A stretch of DNA of 43,535 bases from an uncultured archaeon (lineage in GTDB: Archaea; Thermoproteota; Nitrososphaeria_A; Caldarchaeales; Wolframiiraptoraceae): the NCBI GenBank assembly GCA_938083505.1, contig CALKCF010000008.1:1-43535 (forward strand), read 5' to 3'. Of this stretch, positions 1 to 43,535 are shown in pieces. The notes under the pieces were generated by a model, which was not told the DNA's origin, did not search any database, and saw nothing but the letters and a program-made list of their open reading frames with translations. How positions within the stretch are numbered: the stretch's first letter is position 1; the number at the start of each line of letters is the position of its first letter. The position numbers were made by a program, and so were the translations under genes.

Positions 1-352
1 GCTCGTTTCTAGAGGCATTCTACTGATTAGAACCCATGAAATTCCAAGAAATTAAAGCGCAGAAATCAGAAATTTGAAATGCATGACCAGAAGCACCCTT
101 GAGAATTTCAGGGTATTACATGCGAAATCTTCTAAGGAACAGCAGGATGGATTGACTGCGGTGAAGTAACTCTCAGACTTTCAGGAGCGTTGCTTATAGA
201 ACACTCGACGTGCAGAAGATTCCTGTCCTGGCTACCTCCTACATCCCTTTCAGCGAGGAAGCGGAGAAGCGTGGGATTAATGCGACGTATTGTCCCATTT
301 AACCGTTTGTCAAGCACCATCCTAATTAAGTGGTGCGGAATACATAATACGG

Positions 353-1078
353 ATGCTAAAAATAGAGAGACTTTACGTTACCGTCGGAGAGAGGCTCGTC
401 CTTAGCGACGTGAACCTGGAGATAGACGAGGGCGAGGTCCACGTGCTCTTCGGACCTAACGGCTCGGGGAAATCATCGCTGGTCATGACGATACTTGGCC
501 ATCCCTCCTACAAGGTCATAAGCGGAAGGATAATCTTCAAGGGCATCGACATAACGGAGATGCCGACGGAGGAGCGCATAAAGCTGGGCATAGCGGCAAC
601 CCTACAACACCCGCCCAAGCTGCAGGGCATAATGCTGAAGGACCTGCTGAACAGGATATCTGATGGAAGGCTCAGGGACGACGGGCTATTGAGGCTCATA
701 GACAAGCTTAGGATAAACGAGGACCTGCTAAACAGACACGTGAACGTTGGGTTCTCCGGAGGAGAGATAAAGAAGTGCGAGTTGGTGCAGGTCTTCGCGT
801 TAAACCCCGACCTCTTGCTGTTCGACGAGCCTGACTCCGGTGTAGACATTGAGAACTTAGAGCTGATAGGCAGGGCGATGTCGGAGCTGCTTGCTGGAAA
901 GTCCGCCTTGATAATCACGCACCACGGTCACATACTCAGGTACATAAAACCGGTAAGGGCGCATATAATGTTCAACGGGCAAATAGCCTGCAATGGAGAT
1001 CCCGAGGAGATGCTGAACCAGATATCTAAGAACGGTTACGGATGGTGTGAAAAGTGCATATCGATGAGGAGGAGCTGA
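353..1078 (+). CDS. sufC: Fe-S cluster assembly ABC ATPase SufC (SmsC-like)
   Basis: Walker A GPNGSGKS, signature FSGGE, Walker B LLLFDEPDSG; C-terminal C...CxxC (ACNG...WCEKC); overlaps a SufB/D-family gene. Confidence 0.93.
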   Translation: MLKIERLYVTVGERLVLSDVNLEIDEGEVHVLFGPNGSGKSSLVMTILGHPSYKVISGRIIFKGIDITEMPTEERIKLGIAATLQHPPKLQGIMLKDLLNRISDGRLRDDGLLRLIDKLRINEDLLNRHVNVGFSGGEIKKCELVQVFALNPDLLLFDEPDSGVDIENLELIGRAMSELLAGKSALIITHHGHILRYIKPVRAHIMFNGQIACNGDPEEMLNQISKNGYGWCEKCISMRRS

Positions 1079-2259
1079 ACAAGGCGTTAGATAAGCCCGC
1101 GGATTACGGTCCAGATTTAGACCTCTCAAGCTACCTTATAGAGCCAGAAGAGGCTGCAAGGCTTGATGAATCCATCCTGAAGAGGGCATACGACGTTGGC
1201 ATAGATTTATCCAGGAAGGATTCTGCTGGCAATTTCCTTCAGGTAGACCATAGCGTCATGGTAAAGGCGATACAGAAGAGGTTCGAGAATGATGTGGAAG
1301 TTATGACGATAGATGAGGCTATGGGAAAGTACGATTGGGTTAAAGGGCTCATGTGGAACCTCATATCACCATACAAGGACAAGTACACGGCTTTTGTGGC
1401 GAAGAATAGAAGGGGAGGTTACTTCATAAGGGTCTTGGAGGGAAGGCGCGTATACATACCCGTGCAAGCATGCCTCCTTCTGTACTCGCCGCACATCATG
1501 CAAGCCCTCCATAACTTGATAATCGCGGAGGATGGGACAGAAGCCCATATAATAACCGGCTGTACCCACCACACAAAGTCCGTGAAGGGCTTGCACTTAG
1601 GTATGACGGAGATCTACGTCAAGCGCAACGCGAAGCTCAGCTTTACCATGGTACACAAGTGGGGACCTGGCATGGACGTAAGACCTAGGACCGGGATACT
1701 TGTCGAGGAAGGTGGAACGATGTTCTACAACTACGTCCTACTAGGCGAGGTTGGGAGCATCCAAACCTACCCGGCGGTGACGCTTCTCGGAGATAACTCA
1801 AGAATATCTATGAACAATGTCGTGTATCTATCGGGAAGTTCGAATGCGGACCTTGGAGGCGGCGTAGCGATAAAGGGCTCCGGGTCAAGGGCAGAGCTCC
1901 TGACGAATTCTGTCGTTACTGATAGGGCAAAACTGGTAAGCAGAGGATCTATCGTGTCCGAGGCTCCCGGTACAAAAGGTCACATAAGCTGTAAGGGTTT
2001 GATGTTAAGCGATAGCGCGGAGATATCTGCCGTACCATTGCTCACGTCCAAAAATGCCGATTCTGAGCTCACACATGAAGCGGCAATAGGAAAGATCGCC
2101 GAGGAACAATTATTCTATCTCAGGTCTAGGGGCTTTAGGCTGGATGAGGCTGAGTCGCTTTTGGTCCGTGGATTCTTGGACATATCCTCCATGAAACTTC
2201 CAAAGCACGTGGAGAGGAGCATCAACACCATAATAGAGCAGACGATGAAGGGATTTTAA
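1054..2259 (+). CDS. sufB: SufB/SufD family Fe-S scaffold (SmsB-like)
   Basis: PVQACL, HNLIIAE, IITGCT, HISCKGL and LTHEAAIGKIAEEQLFYLRSRG motifs; coupled to sufC. Confidence 0.92.
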   Translation: MHIDEEELNKALDKPADYGPDLDLSSYLIEPEEAARLDESILKRAYDVGIDLSRKDSAGNFLQVDHSVMVKAIQKRFENDVEVMTIDEAMGKYDWVKGLMWNLISPYKDKYTAFVAKNRRGGYFIRVLEGRRVYIPVQACLLLYSPHIMQALHNLIIAEDGTEAHIITGCTHHTKSVKGLHLGMTEIYVKRNAKLSFTMVHKWGPGMDVRPRTGILVEEGGTMFYNYVLLGEVGSIQTYPAVTLLGDNSRISMNNVVYLSGSSNADLGGGVAIKGSGSRAELLTNSVVTDRAKLVSRGSIVSEAPGTKGHISCKGLMLSDSAEISAVPLLTSKNADSELTHEAAIGKIAEEQLFYLRSRGFRLDEAESLLVRGFLDISSMKLPKHVERSINTIIEQTMKGF

Positions 2260-2345
2260 ACTTCGACCGAGATGGGAGTTACAAAAGCTCGAGAAGGTTC
2301 ATTCAAAAAACAAAAATTTAAAAATACAAAGAGGCGCAAAAGTGT

Positions 2346-2984
2346 GTGAAAGTCTCTGTAATAGTACCAACTTTAGATATATCTAAGGCCCAGAAATACG
2401 TGGGAGAGTCTTTAAAAGATTGTCGAGTGAATATCACTTACGTAATCGATATCTACAAGAATGTATCAAAAACGAGGAATAAGGGTGCGGAAAAAGAGAA
2501 AGATGCTGATGTATTATTCTTTATTGACGATGACATGGAAATAGATCCAGAGCATTTTAGAAAATGGCTTGGTTTAATACTTGAGAATAGAAAAAATGTG
2601 ATTTGGAGCGAGCCACACCGTTTAATTTTTGGCATAGCTAGAGAGCTTTTCATACTAATTGGAGGCTTTGATGAAAGGTTACCTTTAATGTCAGAAGATA
2701 CTGAGATGTGGTATACATTAAAGAAACTTGAGAGGGCAGGAGTCTTACGGATAAACATCGTTGAGGAGGGATATGTCCACCACACGACACCAAAAGGATT
2801 TGAGAGAAAATGGTTAAACGAGAAGCACAGCGTTTACACATTCCTGAAGCATGATAGGAAGAGGCTCTTGCATGCCTTGAAGAGGTATCAAGATGGTTGG
2901 AAAATATTTTTGATGCGATACGTTTGGTTAGTTTGGGCGGTTTGGAAGCTTCTATTTTTCAAAAGAACTGATTGCAAATTCTAA
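2346..2984 (+). CDS. Glycosyltransferase family 2 (GT-A fold)
   Basis: VSVIVPT, RNKGA, FFIDDD (DxD-like), IGGFDE, SED motifs; visibly more AT-rich than sufCB. Confidence 0.85.
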   Translation: MKVSVIVPTLDISKAQKYVGESLKDCRVNITYVIDIYKNVSKTRNKGAEKEKDADVLFFIDDDMEIDPEHFRKWLGLILENRKNVIWSEPHRLIFGIARELFILIGGFDERLPLMSEDTEMWYTLKKLERAGVLRINIVEEGYVHHTTPKGFERKWLNEKHSVYTFLKHDRKRLLHALKRYQDGWKIFLMRYVWLVWAVWKLLFFKRTDCKF

Positions 2985-2995
2985 AAACTCTTAAG

Positions 2996-3089
2996 TGGGC
3001 CGGCCCGGACTCGAACCGGGGATTTCCACCGCTTCCTGTAGCCGTAGCCTAAGTCAGGGTGGCGTCATACCAGGCTAGACCACCGGCCC
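2996..3089 (-). tRNA. tRNA-Val(GAC) with 20-nt intron (3033-3052, most likely at position 36/37)
   Basis: Reverse strand folds as GGGCCGG/CCGGCCC acceptor, CCACC/GGTGG anticodon stem, GGTTCGAGTCC T arm; removing TTAGGCTACGGCTACAGGAA gives loop CTGACGC. Confidence 0.93.
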
Positions 3090-3201
3090 TCAAGATCACT
3101 AAAAATTCGAGCTATTGATATATATCTATATCCTTAACTTGATGGAATAGACGGCCCCTTATGGTCGACCGTTTCTTATGCTTTACGAATTCGGTGCGAG
3201 G

Positions 3202-3390
3202 TTACACGCGGTTATTGTTTGCTTGTTGCACTCTGCACGTCTGAGTCTCCTGCTCGTTGAACTTCTCCAGCAACCTTCGTATAGCATCTTTAACGAACTC
3301 TGCCCTGCTGCTGTAACCTGCCTTGTATAGTATTTTATCTATCTGAAGACCTATCTCCTCAGGAATCTTCACGGTCACGTAACGCGTCAT
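3202..3390 (-). CDS. Ribbon-helix-helix (CopG/Arc-like) DNA-binding protein
   Basis: YVTVKIPEE strand-helix followed by GYSSRAEFVKDAIRRLL, typical RHH. Confidence 0.85.
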   Translation of the reverse strand: MTRYVTVKIPEEIGLQIDKILYKAGYSSRAEFVKDAIRRLLEKFNEQETQTCRVQQANNNRV

Positions 3391-3608
3391 ATGGGCTCAC
3401 ATTATGCCAGTAAGAGTAGCCAATTGATAAATATAACCCAGTTTTTGTAAATTTTTATAAGAAAACATAGGGAGTCGTCTGAGACGATTTTGAACTTTTA
3501 TGTAATACTTTATATTATGGTGTAAAAATCTTAAAATGTGCATGCTACAATGATCGCATTAACATTCACGCATTTTTTGTACAACCACCCTTCGGGAGGT
3601 TTTAGGAC

Positions 3609-4406
3609 GTGGAGGATTTCCTGCTAATGCTGGAGGAGGTTCTAATAGACGCAGGCAAGGCTTTGTCCAACAAATCAAGGTATGATATATTGACGGCCCT
3701 ATCGAAAGGAAAGAGGACGATAATCCAGATCGCAAAAGAAACCGGCCTAAGTCAGATGACCGTTAGGTTTCACCTCAAGACACTCATCGAGGCCGGCTTG
3801 GTGAAAAAAAGCAGCGCGTGTAGGACTGGAGGTGCCGGAAGACCAGGCGCCTTTTATGAGCTCTCTAAATCTTTAACGATGATATCGTTCCCACCTAGGC
3901 AGTATATGCTTCTGTCATACATACTCTTGACAGCTCTCAAGGAATCTCTAGGAGAATTGCAGGCAAGGACTGTTCTGTACGATTTTGGTAAGAGATTAGG
4001 CCAGAGCTTCAGGATTGAGATAGAAAAAACTCTCATGAATGAGAATGAGCAAACTGCAGAAAAATTCGTCCACTGCCTAGTTAATCTCTGTTTTAAAAAG
4101 ATTGGAATAATCGCCGAAGCCCTTAAGAATAGCGACAAGGAGGTACTCATAAGGTTCTACAACTGTCCGTTCGAGGAGGTTACGCGAAGCTATGCTGGTC
4201 TGGTTTGCGAGGGGTTTGAAAACGGCCTTTATGACGGCCTGTACACGGGCTGTAGGAATCTTACATGGAAAAAGACAAAGAGTATGGCAAAGGGAGACGA
4301 GCACTGCGAGCATATACTATTCTTAGCTTTTGGTGTTAACAAAAAGACATTACACGAAAACAATATAAATAATCAGAAAGGTGTCAAATTCTTGATGCCC
4401 CGGTAG
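3609..4406 (+). CDS. ArsR-type wHTH transcriptional regulator with C-terminal V4R-like domain
   Basis: ALSNKSRYDIL...IAKETGLSQMTVRFHLKTL...GRP..Y; C-terminal NCPF...VC...GDEHC. Confidence 0.85.
   Translation: MEDFLLMLEEVLIDAGKALSNKSRYDILTALSKGKRTIIQIAKETGLSQMTVRFHLKTLIEAGLVKKSSACRTGGAGRPGAFYELSKSLTMISFPPRQYMLLSYILLTALKESLGELQARTVLYDFGKRLGQSFRIEIEKTLMNENEQTAEKFVHCLVNLCFKKIGIIAEALKNSDKEVLIRFYNCPFEEVTRSYAGLVCEGFENGLYDGLYTGCRNLTWKKTKSMAKGDEHCEHILFLAFGVNKKTLHENNINNQKGVKFLMPR
4361..4373 (+). promoter_or_regulatory. Probable TATA box of tRNA-Phe, inside the 3' end of the upstream CDS
   Basis: AATATAAATAA about 25-35 nt upstream of the tRNA 5' end at 4397. Confidence 0.5.
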
Positions 4407-4492
4407 CGCAGATCGGGAGCGCGCCCGGCTGAAGACCGGGGTGTCGTGGGTTCAAGATCTCCCTAAAGGAGATGGAAATCCCACCCGGGGCA
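4397..4492 (+). tRNA. tRNA-Phe(GAA) with 22-nt intron in the T-loop (4457-4478, position 59/60)
   Basis: GCCCCGG/CCGGGGC acceptor, CCCGG-CTGAAGA-CCGGG anticodon arm; strict BHB: GTGGG/CCCAC, bulge AAT, TTCA/TGGA, bulge AGA, TCTCC/GGAGA. Confidence 0.95.
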
Positions 4493-38442: not shown

Positions 38443-39024
38443 ATGGTAAAATTTTATTTGATTTTGACAGGAGAAAGAGGTTATGCCGTACTTATTATAG
38501 CCGCGTCGTTTACCCTTATGATTATGCCTTTTTATATTACGTTTAATGAGCTTCTCACGGAGATCATAAAATCGATCGGTTTATGGTGGTTCATAGAGGC
38601 ATACATTGCACCACTCGTGGCACATCTTGCGGCATCTATGCTGAGCCTTTTCGGATTTAATGTTACATTATCGGGCCCACTCATTTACCTAAATGCGCCA
38701 AGCGGGGCGGTAGCTTTATACATAGCTTGGAACTGTATAGGCTGGCAGAGCCTTGTTATATTCTCTGCCATATCCTACCTCGTTCTCAAAGAGTCGCATC
38801 TTTCCCGTGTCGAAAAGTTTACAATGTTATTTTTAGGTTTTCAGGGAACGATTTTAGTAAACATACTTAGGATAGCACTCGTGGCTCTTATAGCGATATA
38901 TTTTGGGAAGGGTCCGGCCATAATATTCCATGACTACTTTGGTAGCTTCCTCACGTTCGGTTGGCTCACGCTCTTCTGGTTCATAAGCACACGCACTGGT
39001 GGTGAGAATGTTGCAGGTACTTGA
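38443..39024 (+). CDS. Exosortase/archaeosortase family transpeptidase
   Basis: Multi-TM with IAWNCIG (Cys), VNILRI (Arg), FHDYFG (His). Confidence 0.88.
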   Translation: MVKFYLILTGERGYAVLIIAASFTLMIMPFYITFNELLTEIIKSIGLWWFIEAYIAPLVAHLAASMLSLFGFNVTLSGPLIYLNAPSGAVALYIAWNCIGWQSLVIFSAISYLVLKESHLSRVEKFTMLFLGFQGTILVNILRIALVALIAIYFGKGPAIIFHDYFGSFLTFGWLTLFWFISTRTGGENVAGT

Positions 39025-41461
39025 GCTACTGCCATACGTCAGCCTAGCTTTTGGTTTACTTTTCTTTACGTATGCACTAAGATACTATCTAGCGCTGGCG
39101 TACACGGCATATATACTTTTCAGAGGGCGCAAATACAACAACTATGGAAAAAACGATTTCCAAACTAATGGTGGTCTAAAGTTAAGAAATTACGCGAACG
39201 GTGGCACGTCTTCCTACCCTTTTTTTAACGGCAACCACTTTCCGATGGTGAGCATACACATACCCCTATACAACGAGGAAAGGGTTGCGGCGAGACTAAT
39301 GGAAGCCCTCCTTTCATTAGAGTACCCAAGATACGAGGTAATCGTCGTGGACGACTCGACCGACTCGACACCCGTTATATTAAAGCGTTATGAAAAAGAC
39401 CCACGCGTGAAGATAATACATAGGCAGAATAGGAGCGGCTTCAAAGGTGGAGCGTTACGTGAAGCGCTCAAAATTATGAGCGATGAGGCTGAGTACGTCG
39501 TTGTATTCGATGCAGACTTCATACCACCGAAGGACATAATCCAAAGGTTGCTTAGCGAGTTCAGCAACGCATACAGCAACGCCAAGTTTGATGAGAAGAA
39601 AAACGGCAAAAACTTACGTAAAATATTAGACGAACTCTACAACTCAAGGGAAATCGTCGCGGTTCAAGGCTACCAGTGGCACGTCCTGAACGCTTCTGAG
39701 AACTGGATAACGAAGGCCGTGAGTGCTGAGTACGCGGGCAACTATTTGGTTGAGAGGTTATTCGTGAACAGTTTGATGCTAGGCGTACGCATGATATCCG
39801 GCAGCGTCTTTATGATAAGGGCTGACATACTACGCCAGTATGGCTGGAGGGACAGCCTGACAGAGGACTGGGACTTGACGCTTAGGCTTTATCGTGATGG
39901 TTACAAAGTCAGATACACCCAGCTGGCAGCCGCACCTGCCGAGTGCCCTGCCACCCTTACGTCGCTAATTAGACAGAGGGCCCGATGGGCTGAGGGCCAC
40001 ACGTTTGCCGTGAAGCGTTATTTCATGGAGATACTTAGGAGCAAGTTCTTATCTTTAAGGGAGAAGTTGGAGTTTCTCTACTTATCTCCGTACTACCTCA
40101 GCAGCTTATTCCTCATACTTGGGACAGCCTTATGGTTGACTGCGGAACTCTTGAGGGTAAAGATACCGTTCTGGACCTCGACTTTTGGGTGGTCGCTACT
40201 AATTACCAACATGATGGCCATACCACTCGTCAACCTGACCGGTCTGTGGCTAGAGTACAGAGCTTCTAAGCATTGGCATGGAGCCTTCACCTTCATCCCG
40301 CTCATGCATGTCTTAGCAATATTCCAAGCAGTAGCCGCGCTTAAGGGACTATTCGGTAAAAAGGAGTCCGCTTGGTTCAGGACACTGAAGACTGGGAAGA
40401 TTACTGAGGGCATCTTTGCGTATATCACGAGAATCCTTAAGGGCAGAAGACCTACGAAGAAAAGGTCAGGGATAGTATCTTGTGCGATCCTATCGCTCCT
40501 ATCCTCCTTCTTGGCCTACGCCCTCATTAAGCTCCTAATGAAGAGCGCTGAGGAGTCTGGAAGGATACCGCAGCCAGCCGAGTACGCCATCCTGATGGCC
40601 AGCATATCCGTGGGAATCACTACACTCGTTTGGTTAATGAGTCGAGGTACCCGAATAGGGGGCATGATGCCCAAGCTACTCATAAGCATCGCCGTCATGG
40701 CATCCTCCTACGTTCTCTTGAGACTTCTCTTCGGCGCGGAGTCCTTTACGTTCTATGAGTTTGCCTCTGCCATGACATCTGCTTGCTTGGGAATGTGCCT
40801 CTTCTATAGTTCAAGGTTCAGCCCAAATGCCTTCGCGTTGAAGAAGGCCGGCATACTCTTCGTGATGGTGTCGTTCATGCTTCTCTTGACATTCCAGCCG
40901 GTGCAGCATACCCAAGCTTATGTGCCCCAAGAGACCCTGTACCTTTATCCTAACGGTACTCACATACCGCCTCCTTATGGTATGATGAGTAATAGGCTGC
41001 CTGAAGGGTTCCAAATTTTGTGGATAAGAACGTTTTATTGGAAGTCTACGTCAGCCTATGACTTCACTCCGCAGGACAAAGGAACCTGGGTCTTTCACTT
41101 CGCTGGGAAAAACTCACCAAATCAGTTGGAACTTAGAGTTGGTGTTAGGGTTTATGTCTCGAACGACCCCGAAAGTCCTCCGTCCAAGCTTATAAAGATA
41201 GGAGAAGCATTCTTCACAATAACAGAAATAGATGAATTTGATATAGATGTCCCAATAGAAGTGAATCCTCCGGAGTGCACCGGCTGCTACATATTCCTCA
41301 GTTTAACACCATTTGGACGGGTAGAAATGTACACAGGATATATGAAAAAATACACATACCTCGTGATACCGGAGAACTTTCTGGCATTCATGCCGTTCGC
41401 ATTATTGCTACTGCTGGCCAGAAGAGCATTCCGGAAACCAAGGCAATTAGTTCATCATTGA
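38999..41461 (+). CDS. Cellulose-synthase-like processive GT2 with C-terminal extracellular domain and PEF-CTERM-like tail
   Basis: VVDDS.D, FKGGAL, FDADF, TED, QRARW motifs; many TMs; ends VIPEN + hydrophobic helix + RRAFRK. Confidence 0.88.
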   Translation: MVRMLQVLELLPYVSLAFGLLFFTYALRYYLALAYTAYILFRGRKYNNYGKNDFQTNGGLKLRNYANGGTSSYPFFNGNHFPMVSIHIPLYNEERVAARLMEALLSLEYPRYEVIVVDDSTDSTPVILKRYEKDPRVKIIHRQNRSGFKGGALREALKIMSDEAEYVVVFDADFIPPKDIIQRLLSEFSNAYSNAKFDEKKNGKNLRKILDELYNSREIVAVQGYQWHVLNASENWITKAVSAEYAGNYLVERLFVNSLMLGVRMISGSVFMIRADILRQYGWRDSLTEDWDLTLRLYRDGYKVRYTQLAAAPAECPATLTSLIRQRARWAEGHTFAVKRYFMEILRSKFLSLREKLEFLYLSPYYLSSLFLILGTALWLTAELLRVKIPFWTSTFGWSLLITNMMAIPLVNLTGLWLEYRASKHWHGAFTFIPLMHVLAIFQAVAALKGLFGKKESAWFRTLKTGKITEGIFAYITRILKGRRPTKKRSGIVSCAILSLLSSFLAYALIKLLMKSAEESGRIPQPAEYAILMASISVGITTLVWLMSRGTRIGGMMPKLLISIAVMASSYVLLRLLFGAESFTFYEFASAMTSACLGMCLFYSSRFSPNAFALKKAGILFVMVSFMLLLTFQPVQHTQAYVPQETLYLYPNGTHIPPPYGMMSNRLPEGFQILWIRTFYWKSTSAYDFTPQDKGTWVFHFAGKNSPNQLELRVGVRVYVSNDPESPPSKLIKIGEAFFTITEIDEFDIDVPIEVNPPECTGCYIFLSLTPFGRVEMYTGYMKKYTYLVIPENFLAFMPFALLLLLARRAFRKPRQLVHH

Positions 41462-41582: not shown

Positions 41583-42302
41583 TTAAAAGACCCAGACCTT
41601 TCTGCTCAGATATGGCTCAAGCATTTTTCTATTGACCCAAAGAGTATAAACGAGCGCGCTGGCCTGCTTCACAAATCTTGGGGTAGGGCCACTTTTGCGA
41701 ATGATTTTCCTTGCTTCCTTTATCCTTTCGATCATTTCATGGCTTGGGAGCTCATCGAAAAACTCTCGGCCATAATATCTGGCAGCTCGCTGCAATAGCG
41801 AATAAATATTGGTTCCGGAAGGTGGAAGGTCTTCATAGCCGATGCCTTTCGGTAAACGCAATGCAATCTTCTTTCCACCATCTATCAGGAATAGCCCCTG
41901 AAGGTCATATGCGATCCTCGCGCGGGGCATCGATCCGACAACCCAGCTAGAAAATTCAAAAATCGCCCGCACCTTCATGATCAGCCTAGCCTCCCGCATA
42001 ATCGCGATCCATCCCTCATCCCATGCATCGTAGATCGGCCGATCGAAGTCCTCCTCATTAGGCTGACTTTTCACTAAATAGTACACCACCTTTTTCCCCT
42101 CTCGATAGCCCCTGACGAAACCCCTCTTCTCAGCATCTTTTAGCACCCTCGCGGCCCTCGTCCTATTATGCCCCCTAACAAGCTCAGAAAATGTTTTTGG
42201 CCCCTCGATTAGCGGCGAGAGGATCTTGCAGTATAAATTATCGGATACTCCTAATGGGCTCTTCGGCCTTCCTCTATGTTTTTTTCCGGAATCTACGACC
42301 AT
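41583..42302 (-). CDS. Winged-HTH regulator with N-terminal AT-hook-like motif
   Basis: KHRGRPKS; IL..L.EGPKTFSEL...RVLK.AEKRGFV...EGKKVVYYL. Confidence 0.7.
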   Translation of the reverse strand: MVVDSGKKHRGRPKSPLGVSDNLYCKILSPLIEGPKTFSELVRGHNRTRAARVLKDAEKRGFVRGYREGKKVVYYLVKSQPNEEDFDRPIYDAWDEGWIAIMREARLIMKVRAIFEFSSWVVGSMPRARIAYDLQGLFLIDGGKKIALRLPKGIGYEDLPPSGTNIYSLLQRAARYYGREFFDELPSHEMIERIKEARKIIRKSGPTPRFVKQASALVYTLWVNRKMLEPYLSRKVWVF

Positions 42303-42361
42303 CAGTACCCAAGAAACGCGCCGATATAAATATTTTATTCTTCAATGTTTGATTTTTTGAA

Positions 42362-42502
42362 ATGAAAACCAAAATTCTTCGAAAGGTCCTGACAGTCGGT
42401 TCGAGTAAGCTGGTCACCCTGCCACCAAACTTCTCAGCCTCATACGTTTGGATTCTATGCGAAAACGGGAGAATAGTTATCGAACCGGCGGAGGTCAGGT
42501 AA
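42362..42502 (+). CDS. AbrB/MazE/SpoVT-like small DNA-binding protein
   Basis: Not in the ORF track: MKTKILRKVLTVGSSKLVTLPP...ENGRIVIEP (46 aa); stop abuts the next ATG. Confidence 0.75.
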   Translation: MKTKILRKVLTVGSSKLVTLPPNFSASYVWILCENGRIVIEPAEVR

Positions 42503-43018
42503 ATGTCATTAGAGCGTTACCGAGCGCTCGAAATTAGTGCTGCGAGTACGAAGAAAATAATTGAGGAGCTGGAGGCGAGGCTGAAAAAGATAGATTCTAC
42601 ACCGGCAATTGAATTCGGTGGCAAGGCTAATCAGCTATTAAGCCGTAAGACCGTAGAACTCGTCCTTGAAGATCAAAAAGCGAAACTAACACGTATCGAG
42701 GCCGAGCTGGCCCAAATCCGCCGCGAGCTCGAGAAGAGCCTGCCTGAGAAAGAGTCAGAGTGGCGTGAAAAAGTCACGAAACACAAAGAGCTACTGGATA
42801 AAATATCAAAAAACGTGAAAAATCTTCTTCACTTGACCGGGGAAATTTTGGAGCATGAAAAGAATATGAGAGCTAACGAGAACTATTACTTTTTGTGCCA
42901 AATTTTACAGCATGAGCCCTCGGTCCCTAAGCCCAATTACTTTGGAGACATCTTAGTATACCTCAAAGGTGAATGCGAGCGCTTTTTGCGAGTTTTAGGT
43001 GAGAAGATTGAAGTTTAG
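42503..43018 (+). CDS. Coiled-coil hypothetical protein
   Basis: E/K/L-rich heptads; coupled to flanking ORFs. Confidence 0.7.
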   Translation: MSLERYRALEISAASTKKIIEELEARLKKIDSTPAIEFGGKANQLLSRKTVELVLEDQKAKLTRIEAELAQIRRELEKSLPEKESEWREKVTKHKELLDKISKNVKNLLHLTGEILEHEKNMRANENYYFLCQILQHEPSVPKPNYFGDILVYLKGECERFLRVLGEKIEV

Positions 43019-43193
43019 GCCTCAGGCCTCATTTGCGGATGAAAGGGGGCGGGTTTCTTGCGATGGTTGCGGCCGACTCGTGAAGCGAGATGAGGTCTAT
43101 AAAGTGAATTTTGGGCCGAGAGACGTAGATTATGGGGAATATTGCATAGTATGTTTTCTAAAAATGTTAAAGCGTAGGGGGGCAAGGAAATGA
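42999..43193 (+). CDS. Small zinc-finger protein
   Basis: CDGC...YCIVC. Confidence 0.65.
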   Translation: MRRLKFRPQASFADERGRVSCDGCGRLVKRDEVYKVNFGPRDVDYGEYCIVCFLKMLKRRGARK

Positions 43194-43411
43194 GTGAACG
43201 GTATGCTTTTGGGATAATTTTCAGGGCCGCTGACCCCGATGCATTAACAAAGGTCTCAAATTACATTAAGAATCTAAATTATGAAATAGCATATATGACT
43301 GGTCCGAACCCACCTGAGATTCGTCTATTTATCAAGCACTATGCCCTTCAGCCACTTTCCGTGAAAGGTGCAAAGTCGCATGCTAAAAGAGTGGGTTCAA
43401 AAATACCTTGA
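43190..43411 (+). CDS. Hypothetical protein
   Basis: ATGA overlap with the previous ORF. Confidence 0.55.
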   Translation: MSERYAFGIIFRAADPDALTKVSNYIKNLNYEIAYMTGPNPPEIRLFIKHYALQPLSVKGAKSHAKRVGSKIP

Positions 43412-43535
43412 AAAGGGTTTAACCCCTATCCCACTCGCCCCCCAGGGGAAGAATGCAATCATTCTCAACTGGCCGAATCGAAGCCGAGAAGAGCTTGTGG
43501 AATTTTTCGAAAAATTTCACAATTGTAACATTGGT
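43380..43535 (+). CDS. Bifunctional DNA primase-polymerase (prim-pol) N-terminus, truncated by the window end
   Basis: MLKEWVQKYLEKGLTPIPLAPQGKNAIILNW...NCNIG fits the Y..G..PIPL....K......W...NIG prim-pol pattern. Confidence 0.75.
   Translation, partial: MLKEWVQKYLEKGLTPIPLAPQGKNAIILNWPNRSREELVEFFEKFHNCNIG

Follow-up and report, generated by a model that had tools for sequence, protein, structure and literature searches.

A GT2 polysaccharide synthase gene of an uncultured archaeon read as a probable precursor of a synthase and an exported archaeosortase substrate

The window analysed here, 43,535 nucleotides (nt) long, is the entire contig C8 of a 1.15-Mb archaeal genome (98.5% complete) whose closest named relatives are the Candidatus Terraquivivens metagenome-assembled genomes (Aigarchaeota / Nitrososphaerota). 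It carries a gene for a family 2 glycosyltransferase (GT2) synthase that overlaps a short archaeosortase gene. We propose, with somewhat better than even confidence, that the synthase gene encodes a two-part precursor, a synthase and an exported archaeosortase substrate, which is cut in two. The first part would be a processive GT2 polysaccharide synthase with a single helix at the N-terminus, a catalytic domain in the cytoplasm, a membrane channel region and a basic linker, likewise cytoplasmic; in the second, a signal-peptide-like helix would thread a jelly-roll domain to the outer face of the membrane, and an IPEN motif, a helix and a basic tail would end the protein. Sequence comparisons support the reading of this second part as a fused, complete archaeosortase substrate and make its double cleavage likely. 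The features concerned are the following.

38443..39024, + strand: short archaeosortase-family gene, 193 amino acids (aa); matches to TIGR04178 and PF09721.
39008..41461 (817 aa, ATG start) or from GTG 38999 (820 aa), + strand: open reading frame (ORF) of the GT2 synthase, a candidate precursor; matches to PF00535, PF13641 and PF13632.
40361..40408, + strand: family-specific linker motif, predicted cytoplasmic (KESAWFRTLKTG...), then a stretch with 13 Lys/Arg; from translation, alignments and charge count.
40472..40813, + strand: four extra, lineage-specific membrane helices between the linker and the signal-like helix; from the hydropathy profile and a low-confidence full-length AlphaFold2 model.
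40832..40918 (residues 612-640), + strand: internal signal-peptide-like segment made of KK, a 16-residue hydrophobic core and a flexible c-region ending in T-Q-A; from translation, AlphaFold2 and alignment.
40919..41365, + strand: jelly-roll domain of about 150 aa, predicted extracytoplasmic, galactose-binding / carbohydrate-binding-module (CBM)-like; from AlphaFold2 and structure search.
41366..41458, + strand: tripartite sorting signal of IPEN, hydrophobic helix and basic cluster; from translation.

Residue numbers throughout follow the 820-aa numbering from GTG 38999; the ATG 39008 start shifts them by 3 and leaves nucleotide positions unaffected.

The reading is carried above all by homologues in which the same module occurs in other protein contexts. 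A profile of the module, searched against 400 genomes of the phylum, recovered three further architectures. In the first, a 177-kb contig of genome G184 carries, in this order, genes for a KaiC-like ATPase and an archaeosortase (210 aa; TIGR04178 26.5 bits), a 268-aa ORF and a 909-aa GT2. In the 268-aa protein, which has a gene of its own, the module stands between an N-terminal signal peptide and an IPEN tail, and the 909-aa GT2 has the same family linker, lacks the module and ends in a cytoplasmic coiled coil. With hhalign the module family aligns to the 268-aa protein over 189 columns, from signal peptide through tail (96% probability, E 4e-9). The internal segment of the fused form thereby falls on the N-terminal signal peptide of the standalone homologue, and by this alignment would be the positional equivalent of a true signal peptide. 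A search of 40 relatives of G184 did not recover this standalone form; JGI and Logan assemblies contain four further clusters of it at 90% identity (258-272 aa, 83-100% identical), and because these assemblies are independent we take the split to be real. The second architecture occurs in all six genomes searched of genus g147, where the synthase-module gene is followed by two tandem archaeosortase-module fusions of about 430 aa (436 aa) and then by a third, plain archaeosortase. In each fusion the archaeosortase is followed by a basic stretch and a signal-like helix with V-S-A, V-Y-A, V-A-A or similar at its end, then by the module and a PEN/SEN tail. The third, in genome G325, is a standalone protein of 410 aa in which two modules lie between an N-terminal signal peptide and a VPEL tail. 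It adjoins an archaeosortase and matches Pfam PepX_C directly; its hhalign match to the module family is weak (31% probability), and the link rests mainly on the tail, the adjoining archaeosortase and the PepX_C match. Since the unit of signal-like helix, module and tail is found alone or fused behind either partner, we regard it as an independent building block. An earlier note on this DNA had described a complete secreted sortase substrate fused behind the synthase and had suggested looking for homologues with the module as a separate gene; the G184 protein and the four further clusters are such homologues, and together with the archaeosortase-fused forms they uphold the substrate part of that description. 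The word sortase does not hold, the implied enzyme being an archaeosortase of the exosortase family encoded immediately upstream.

The internal segment has the form of a Sec signal peptide (basic n-region, hydrophobic h-region, polar c-region, small residues at -3 and -1) in every respect but its position, which is internal instead of N-terminal. Translation of 40832-40936 confirms the basic, hydrophobic and polar stretch that had been claimed to end in T-Q-A before YVPQ: the c-region is rich in Q, P, H and T, the T-Q-A end lies at nt 40918 (residue 640), and YVPQET follows. The n/h/c pattern recurs in 30 of the 30 aligned members, position -1 being Ala or Gly and position -3 small or aliphatic, and spans groups with <20% identity between them. 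A (-3,-1) site is conserved in every member, and on this count the absence of a predicted cleavage, which the earlier note had listed among the results that would undo it, does not refute the reading. We ran AlphaFold2 on residues 612-820 with a 31-sequence alignment and obtained a model with a mean predicted local distance difference test score (pLDDT) of 89.4 and a predicted template-modelling score (pTM) of 0.77, in which a helix covers the hydrophobic core, a beta-sandwich occupies residues 641-791 and the hydrophobic stretch near the C-terminus forms another helix. The eight residues up to T-Q-A are the sole stretch of this model with pLDDT <50, and since the c-region is the only disordered stretch, the T-Q-A site would be accessible. 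The genome encodes one archaeal signal peptidase I (TIGR02228, 94.9 bits).

Most of the jelly-roll domain is modelled at pLDDT >90, and the confident sandwich bears out the beta-rich soluble domain (about residues 641-788, with CTGC, before the IPEN tail) noticed earlier in the letters; the CTGC motif does lie within it. Its best structural matches are the C-terminal jelly-rolls of CocE/PepX-type hydrolases, 8yzn_A (Z 14.2) and 6nff_A (Z 12.3), with 4pf1_A (Z 11.1) and 1lns_A (Z 10.2) further down; next come the sugar-binding domains of BcsB, 6yg8_A (Z 9.6) and 5eiy_B (Z 8.2), and many CBMs match at Z of about 8. The modelled fold is thus of the galactose-binding / CBM-like sandwich kind, which would suit a glycan-handling partner. 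As a lead only, the ESM Atlas returned clusters of archaeal hypothetical proteins of 250-261 aa (score 0.94) and, at lower rank, IPTL-CTERM and PEP-CTERM proteins.

The domain is predicted to lie outside the cell. In relatives, the linker is continued by a zinc ribbon or by a long tail of charged or coiled-coil type, and no more helices follow, which argues that it is cytoplasmic. The stretch from linker to module always contains an odd number of helices, namely five in this protein, three in a second group and one in the large Bathyarchaeia-type group; the five helices after the linker also appear in the full-length AlphaFold2 model, which is of low confidence (pLDDT 63). The C-terminal tail is basic, as expected on the cytoplasmic side. 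A cytoplasmic basic linker, an odd helix count and a basic final tail together place the jelly-roll domain outside, the opposite of the cytoplasmic location that had been named earlier as an outcome fatal to the reading. The extra helices number four in Terraquivivens only, two in the sister group and none in the Bathyarchaeia-type group. At four loci (L035, L041, L046 and L068), GT2 ORFs with the same linker lack the module and end about 100 residues after the linker in a CxxC...CxxC zinc ribbon.

At the C-terminus, IPEN (41366-41377) is followed by 14 hydrophobic residues and then by RRAFRKPRQ. A motif followed by a helix and a basic end is the defining form of exosortase/archaeosortase signals, and the tail has this generic form, down to the co-occurring enzyme. 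Across 26 sequences, nothing in the entire module is invariant apart from the P and E of the motif, which fits what is expected of an enzyme recognition site. The synthase is the sole ORF in the genome with such a tail. None of the NCBIfam sorting-domain models, that for PEF-CTERM included, matches the tail at E up to 10.

The 193-aa enzyme encoded upstream is likewise the sole family match in the 1.15-Mb genome and belongs to the exosortase/archaeosortase family by both general models (TIGR04178, 47 bits against a cut-off of 23; PF09721, 53.8 against 25.7). Its WNC98xGWQ, R143 and FH163 signatures are invariant across 12 family members, and C98, R143 and H163 are presumably the catalytic residues, by comparison with published work on ArtA. 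The nearest specific models are those of cyanoexosortase C and ArtC. The enzyme falls outside ArtC (TIGR03762, 35.3 bits against a cut-off of 100), and the system falls outside XrtG by both of its models (XrtG, TIGR03110, 29 against 102.75 bits; TIGR03111, 31.1 against 363.95 bits).

The synthase part is a membrane GT2 synthase of the processive (BcsA / PgaC / NodC / HAS) type, as judged from its motifs and from the helices that follow the catalytic domain. The GT2 domain takes up the first 350 residues by Pfam matches, and in an alignment of 29 synthases the DDSxD, DAD, TED and QRxRW motifs are invariant (D115/D116, D168-A-D170, T285-E-D287 and Q323-R-x-R-W327). Its best named matches are PgaC/IcaA and cellulose synthase, each under the equivalog cut-off; the best in NCBIfam, PgaC/IcaA (TIGR03937), scores 101.5 bits against a cut-off of 422.3. 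Translation probably starts at ATG 39008, which is preceded by GGTGGTGAG, as opposed to GTG 38999; with that start the overlap with the archaeosortase gene is 17 nt.

A scan for the linker motif, which is invariant in the family alignments, retrieved 55 loci (49 from metagenomes and 6 from genomes). The full arrangement of linker, signal-like helix, 150-200-aa module and [VIL]PE[NYT] with helix and basic tail is found in 38 distinct sequences, and module identity to the query across 26 of them is only 13-51%. The same fusion occurs in two congeners, G003 and G005 (module 47-57% identity), and in a sister genus (G020). In these three genomes an archaeosortase gene of 186-196 aa overlaps the synthase start, as the archaeosortase gene does here and in G006. 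A phmmer search of the module against 1.84 billion representatives returned only 7 proteins, all of them fused forms or fragments.

We therefore propose the following sequence of events, in which every step is conditional. Signal peptidase I would cut after T-Q-A (nt 40918) and free the N-terminus of the module, and the signal-like helix would stay behind as the last helix of the synthase. The upstream archaeosortase, by analogy with ArtA, would then cut at IPEN and join the C-terminus so created to an acceptor, either a membrane lipid or some other molecule. What results would be a protein of carbohydrate-binding type anchored at the surface, about 150 aa long and made once per synthase. Among possible roles, of which the earlier note had suggested glycan acceptor and primer, the likeliest would be that of a partner akin to BcsB, taking up or steering the glycan as it emerges.

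Several observations weigh against this proposal. When 13-residue windows of 19 representatives were shuffled, the joint p was about 1.5e-3 under a loose rule and 2e-4 under a strict one, and a usable (-3,-1) site survives most within-window shuffles; because the composition of the segment is already small and polar, this test lends modest support, and the comparison of architectures is the stronger evidence. Many Bathyarchaeia-type members have hydrophobic cores of 19-23 residues, a length that would equally fit a permanent membrane anchor. The fusion is of old date and widely distributed, and the covalent link itself could be useful. The full-length model is too weak for conclusions on how the helices and the module pack on the synthase, the archaeosortase is adjacent in just 8 of the 55 retrieved loci, and to our knowledge archaeosortases this short have never been characterised biochemically.

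The main rival explanation is an uncleaved signal-anchor, in which a permanent helix ties the jelly-roll domain to the synthase and the archaeosortase processes only the C-terminal tail, leaving the domain as a fixed cap over the glycan exit, tethered to the enzyme at one end and to lipid at the other. Such an arrangement would suit the long cores, a fusion kept across several lineages and a (-3,-1) pattern largely accounted for by composition, and BcsB functions bound to BcsA. The same helix is, however, a genuine N-terminal signal peptide in the standalone homologues, and the flexible c-region ends in Ala or Gly in every group. The module also sits behind an unlike protein, the archaeosortase, which argues that no specific covalent partner is needed. 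We consider the uncleaved anchor possible but clearly less probable than the cleaved precursor, and judge signal peptidase cleavage at T-Q-A, as predicted from the conserved segment, to be slightly favoured over its absence.

A second alternative drops processing altogether: the module would be held by a plain two-helix tether, the IPEN tail would be a mere membrane anchor, and the archaeosortase would act elsewhere or in glycan export. The silence of the curated sorting-signal models and the lack of an adjacent archaeosortase in most Bathyarchaeia-type loci speak for it, but it gives no account of a P and an E that alone are invariant, of a layout that defines exosortase/archaeosortase signals, of exactly one archaeosortase and one such tail in the genome, encoded in overlapping genes, or of a tail that accompanies the module in all three architectures; we hold it to be very unlikely. 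An artefact, with two genes joined in this assembly alone by a frameshift or, as in the earlier note's list of refuting results, by a lost stop codon, is barely credible, since the ORF is continuous here and the fusion recurs in G003, G005 and some 36 further sequences from independent metagenomes, the one point in its favour being a frameshift inside the domain in a relative, G006 (Ca. Terraquivivens tikiterensis).

The cleaved precursor can be set beside several known systems. Ever since exosortase-family enzymes were first described, their gene neighbourhoods have linked them to polysaccharide loci. The XrtG system of Firmicutes combines, in adjacent genes, a small member of the exosortase family (about 190 aa), a secreted Firmicu-CTERM protein and PgaC-like GT2s (PMC12854382). 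The same three parts are present here, and the split G184 locus has the XrtG layout; in contrast to XrtG, the target is fused behind the synthase (or behind the archaeosortase in g147), the signal is [VIL]PE[NYT] in place of Firmicu-CTERM, and the host is an archaeon. The system is functionally XrtG-like without being a member of XrtG, whose family cut-offs it misses widely. The present analysis contributes the internal signal-peptide-like segment, the predicted outside topology, the fold and the three alternative architectures that mark the module as a separable substrate.

In AcsAB of Komagataeibacter hansenii, according to a passage in PMC9757748 citing Iyer 2013, a single gene encodes a BcsA-BcsB fusion that is cleaved post-translationally. 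As here, the ORF encodes a processive GT2 synthase and, behind it, an exported partner that combines jelly-roll sugar-binding domains with a C-terminal membrane helix. BcsB is larger, at about 700 aa, than the one 150-aa domain of the present module, which shows no sequence similarity to it and whose C-terminal helix comes with an archaeosortase motif. Since the C-terminal domains of PepX/CocE match the module better (Z 10-14), its likeness to BcsB is one of fold class only.

The ArtC signal is given as PEF-CTERM in a passage of PMC5244752 that cites Haft 2012. The ArtC/PEF-CTERM and ArtA/PGF-CTERM systems share with the present one a tripartite signal of P-E motif, helix and basic cluster and an enzyme with the Cys/Arg/His signature. 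They differ in serving many surface proteins, whereas here there is a single dedicated target, itself part of a membrane enzyme. Only the C-terminal half of ArtC is represented in the enzyme here, and N, Y or T stands in the motif where PEF-CTERM has F; judged by its sequence, PE[NYT] looks like a variant of the PEF-CTERM signal. Finally, FbcH of Bradyrhizobium, the cytochrome b-c1 precursor, is a polytopic protein with an internal signal peptide and an exported, anchored domain, from which signal peptidase makes two subunits. It belongs to an unrelated family, is bacterial and has no sorting-enzyme step.

Some further observations concern the module and its tail. Two candidates for module-only genes were rejected: P0008 (243 aa) lies on a 1168-bp contig and has a 1022-aa fusion as its 90%-identity cluster mate, and P0003 (154 aa) owes its apparent clean split to a frameshift within the domain in Ca. 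Terraquivivens tikiterensis. The latter locus (L013 / L064, on a 4874-base contig) reads as ORFs of 673 and 154 aa, from a pseudogene or a sequencing error. At L017:2952-4724 and L018:3951-5846, an N-truncated synthase with the module is followed by a 159-aa partial second module beside a small insertion-sequence-like gene; these look like decayed remnants of a tandem pair. In Bathyarchaeia-type genomes, proteins of about 1000 aa with a PEF-CTERM-like tail (PIPEFP, helix, RRR) are encoded a few genes from the synthase (L019:8321-11416, L020:8793-10736 and L042:9341-12313, all on the - strand), which suggests that these genomes probably also hold a general archaeosortase system.

Others concern the synthase and its neighbours. 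Synthases of the G184 and P0007 type have a long insert of repeated coiled-coil-like units within the GT2 domain (L083:7115-9844), with a weak Pfam GvpG match (28.4 bits, under the cut-off). In the Bathyarchaeia-type loci a ParA/MinD-family ATPase adjoins the synthase (AAA_31 70.7 bits; ParA 58.4 bits), reminiscent of BcsQ in cellulose operons, and a PadR regulator is also present; the match is weaker in the Aigarchaeota loci (neighbours compared at L019:2597-3391, L015:410-1219 and L010:3362-4210). In the congeners, four genes come after the synthase and encode a protein of 134 aa, a ParA-like ATPase, a protein of 345 aa and a CDC48-type ATPase. In the source genome these four genes form the start of contig C3 (positions 15-4462), and the end of the window (41583-43535) holds unrelated small genes instead; the position of the congeners' downstream genes on contig C3 points to an insertion or an assembly break directly after the synthase. 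Such a break fits an integrated element that had been proposed at this site from sequence alone.

Overall, the family puts an enzyme, its single substrate and a synthase into one or two genes, with the substrate alone, fused to the synthase or fused to the enzyme. This arrangement names the archaeosortase substrate outright and argues that the three parts act as one machine, a simple system with one signal peptidase site, one archaeosortase site and one small folded domain. If the proposed cleavage occurs, it would be a rare example among prokaryotes of a polytopic enzyme that an internal signal peptide separates from an exported partner. In a further variant, which we consider unlikely, the archaeosortase would join the module, after both cuts, to the glycan or glycan carrier of its own synthase and not to lipid. 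Every synthase molecule would in that case supply its polymer with a single protein cap or anchor, which would explain the repeated fusion of the module to either partner and would provide the long-sought chemical link between exosortase-family enzymes and polysaccharide production. More broadly, the arrangement points to a surface-glycan machine in Aigarchaeota and Bathyarchaeia, both uncultured groups.

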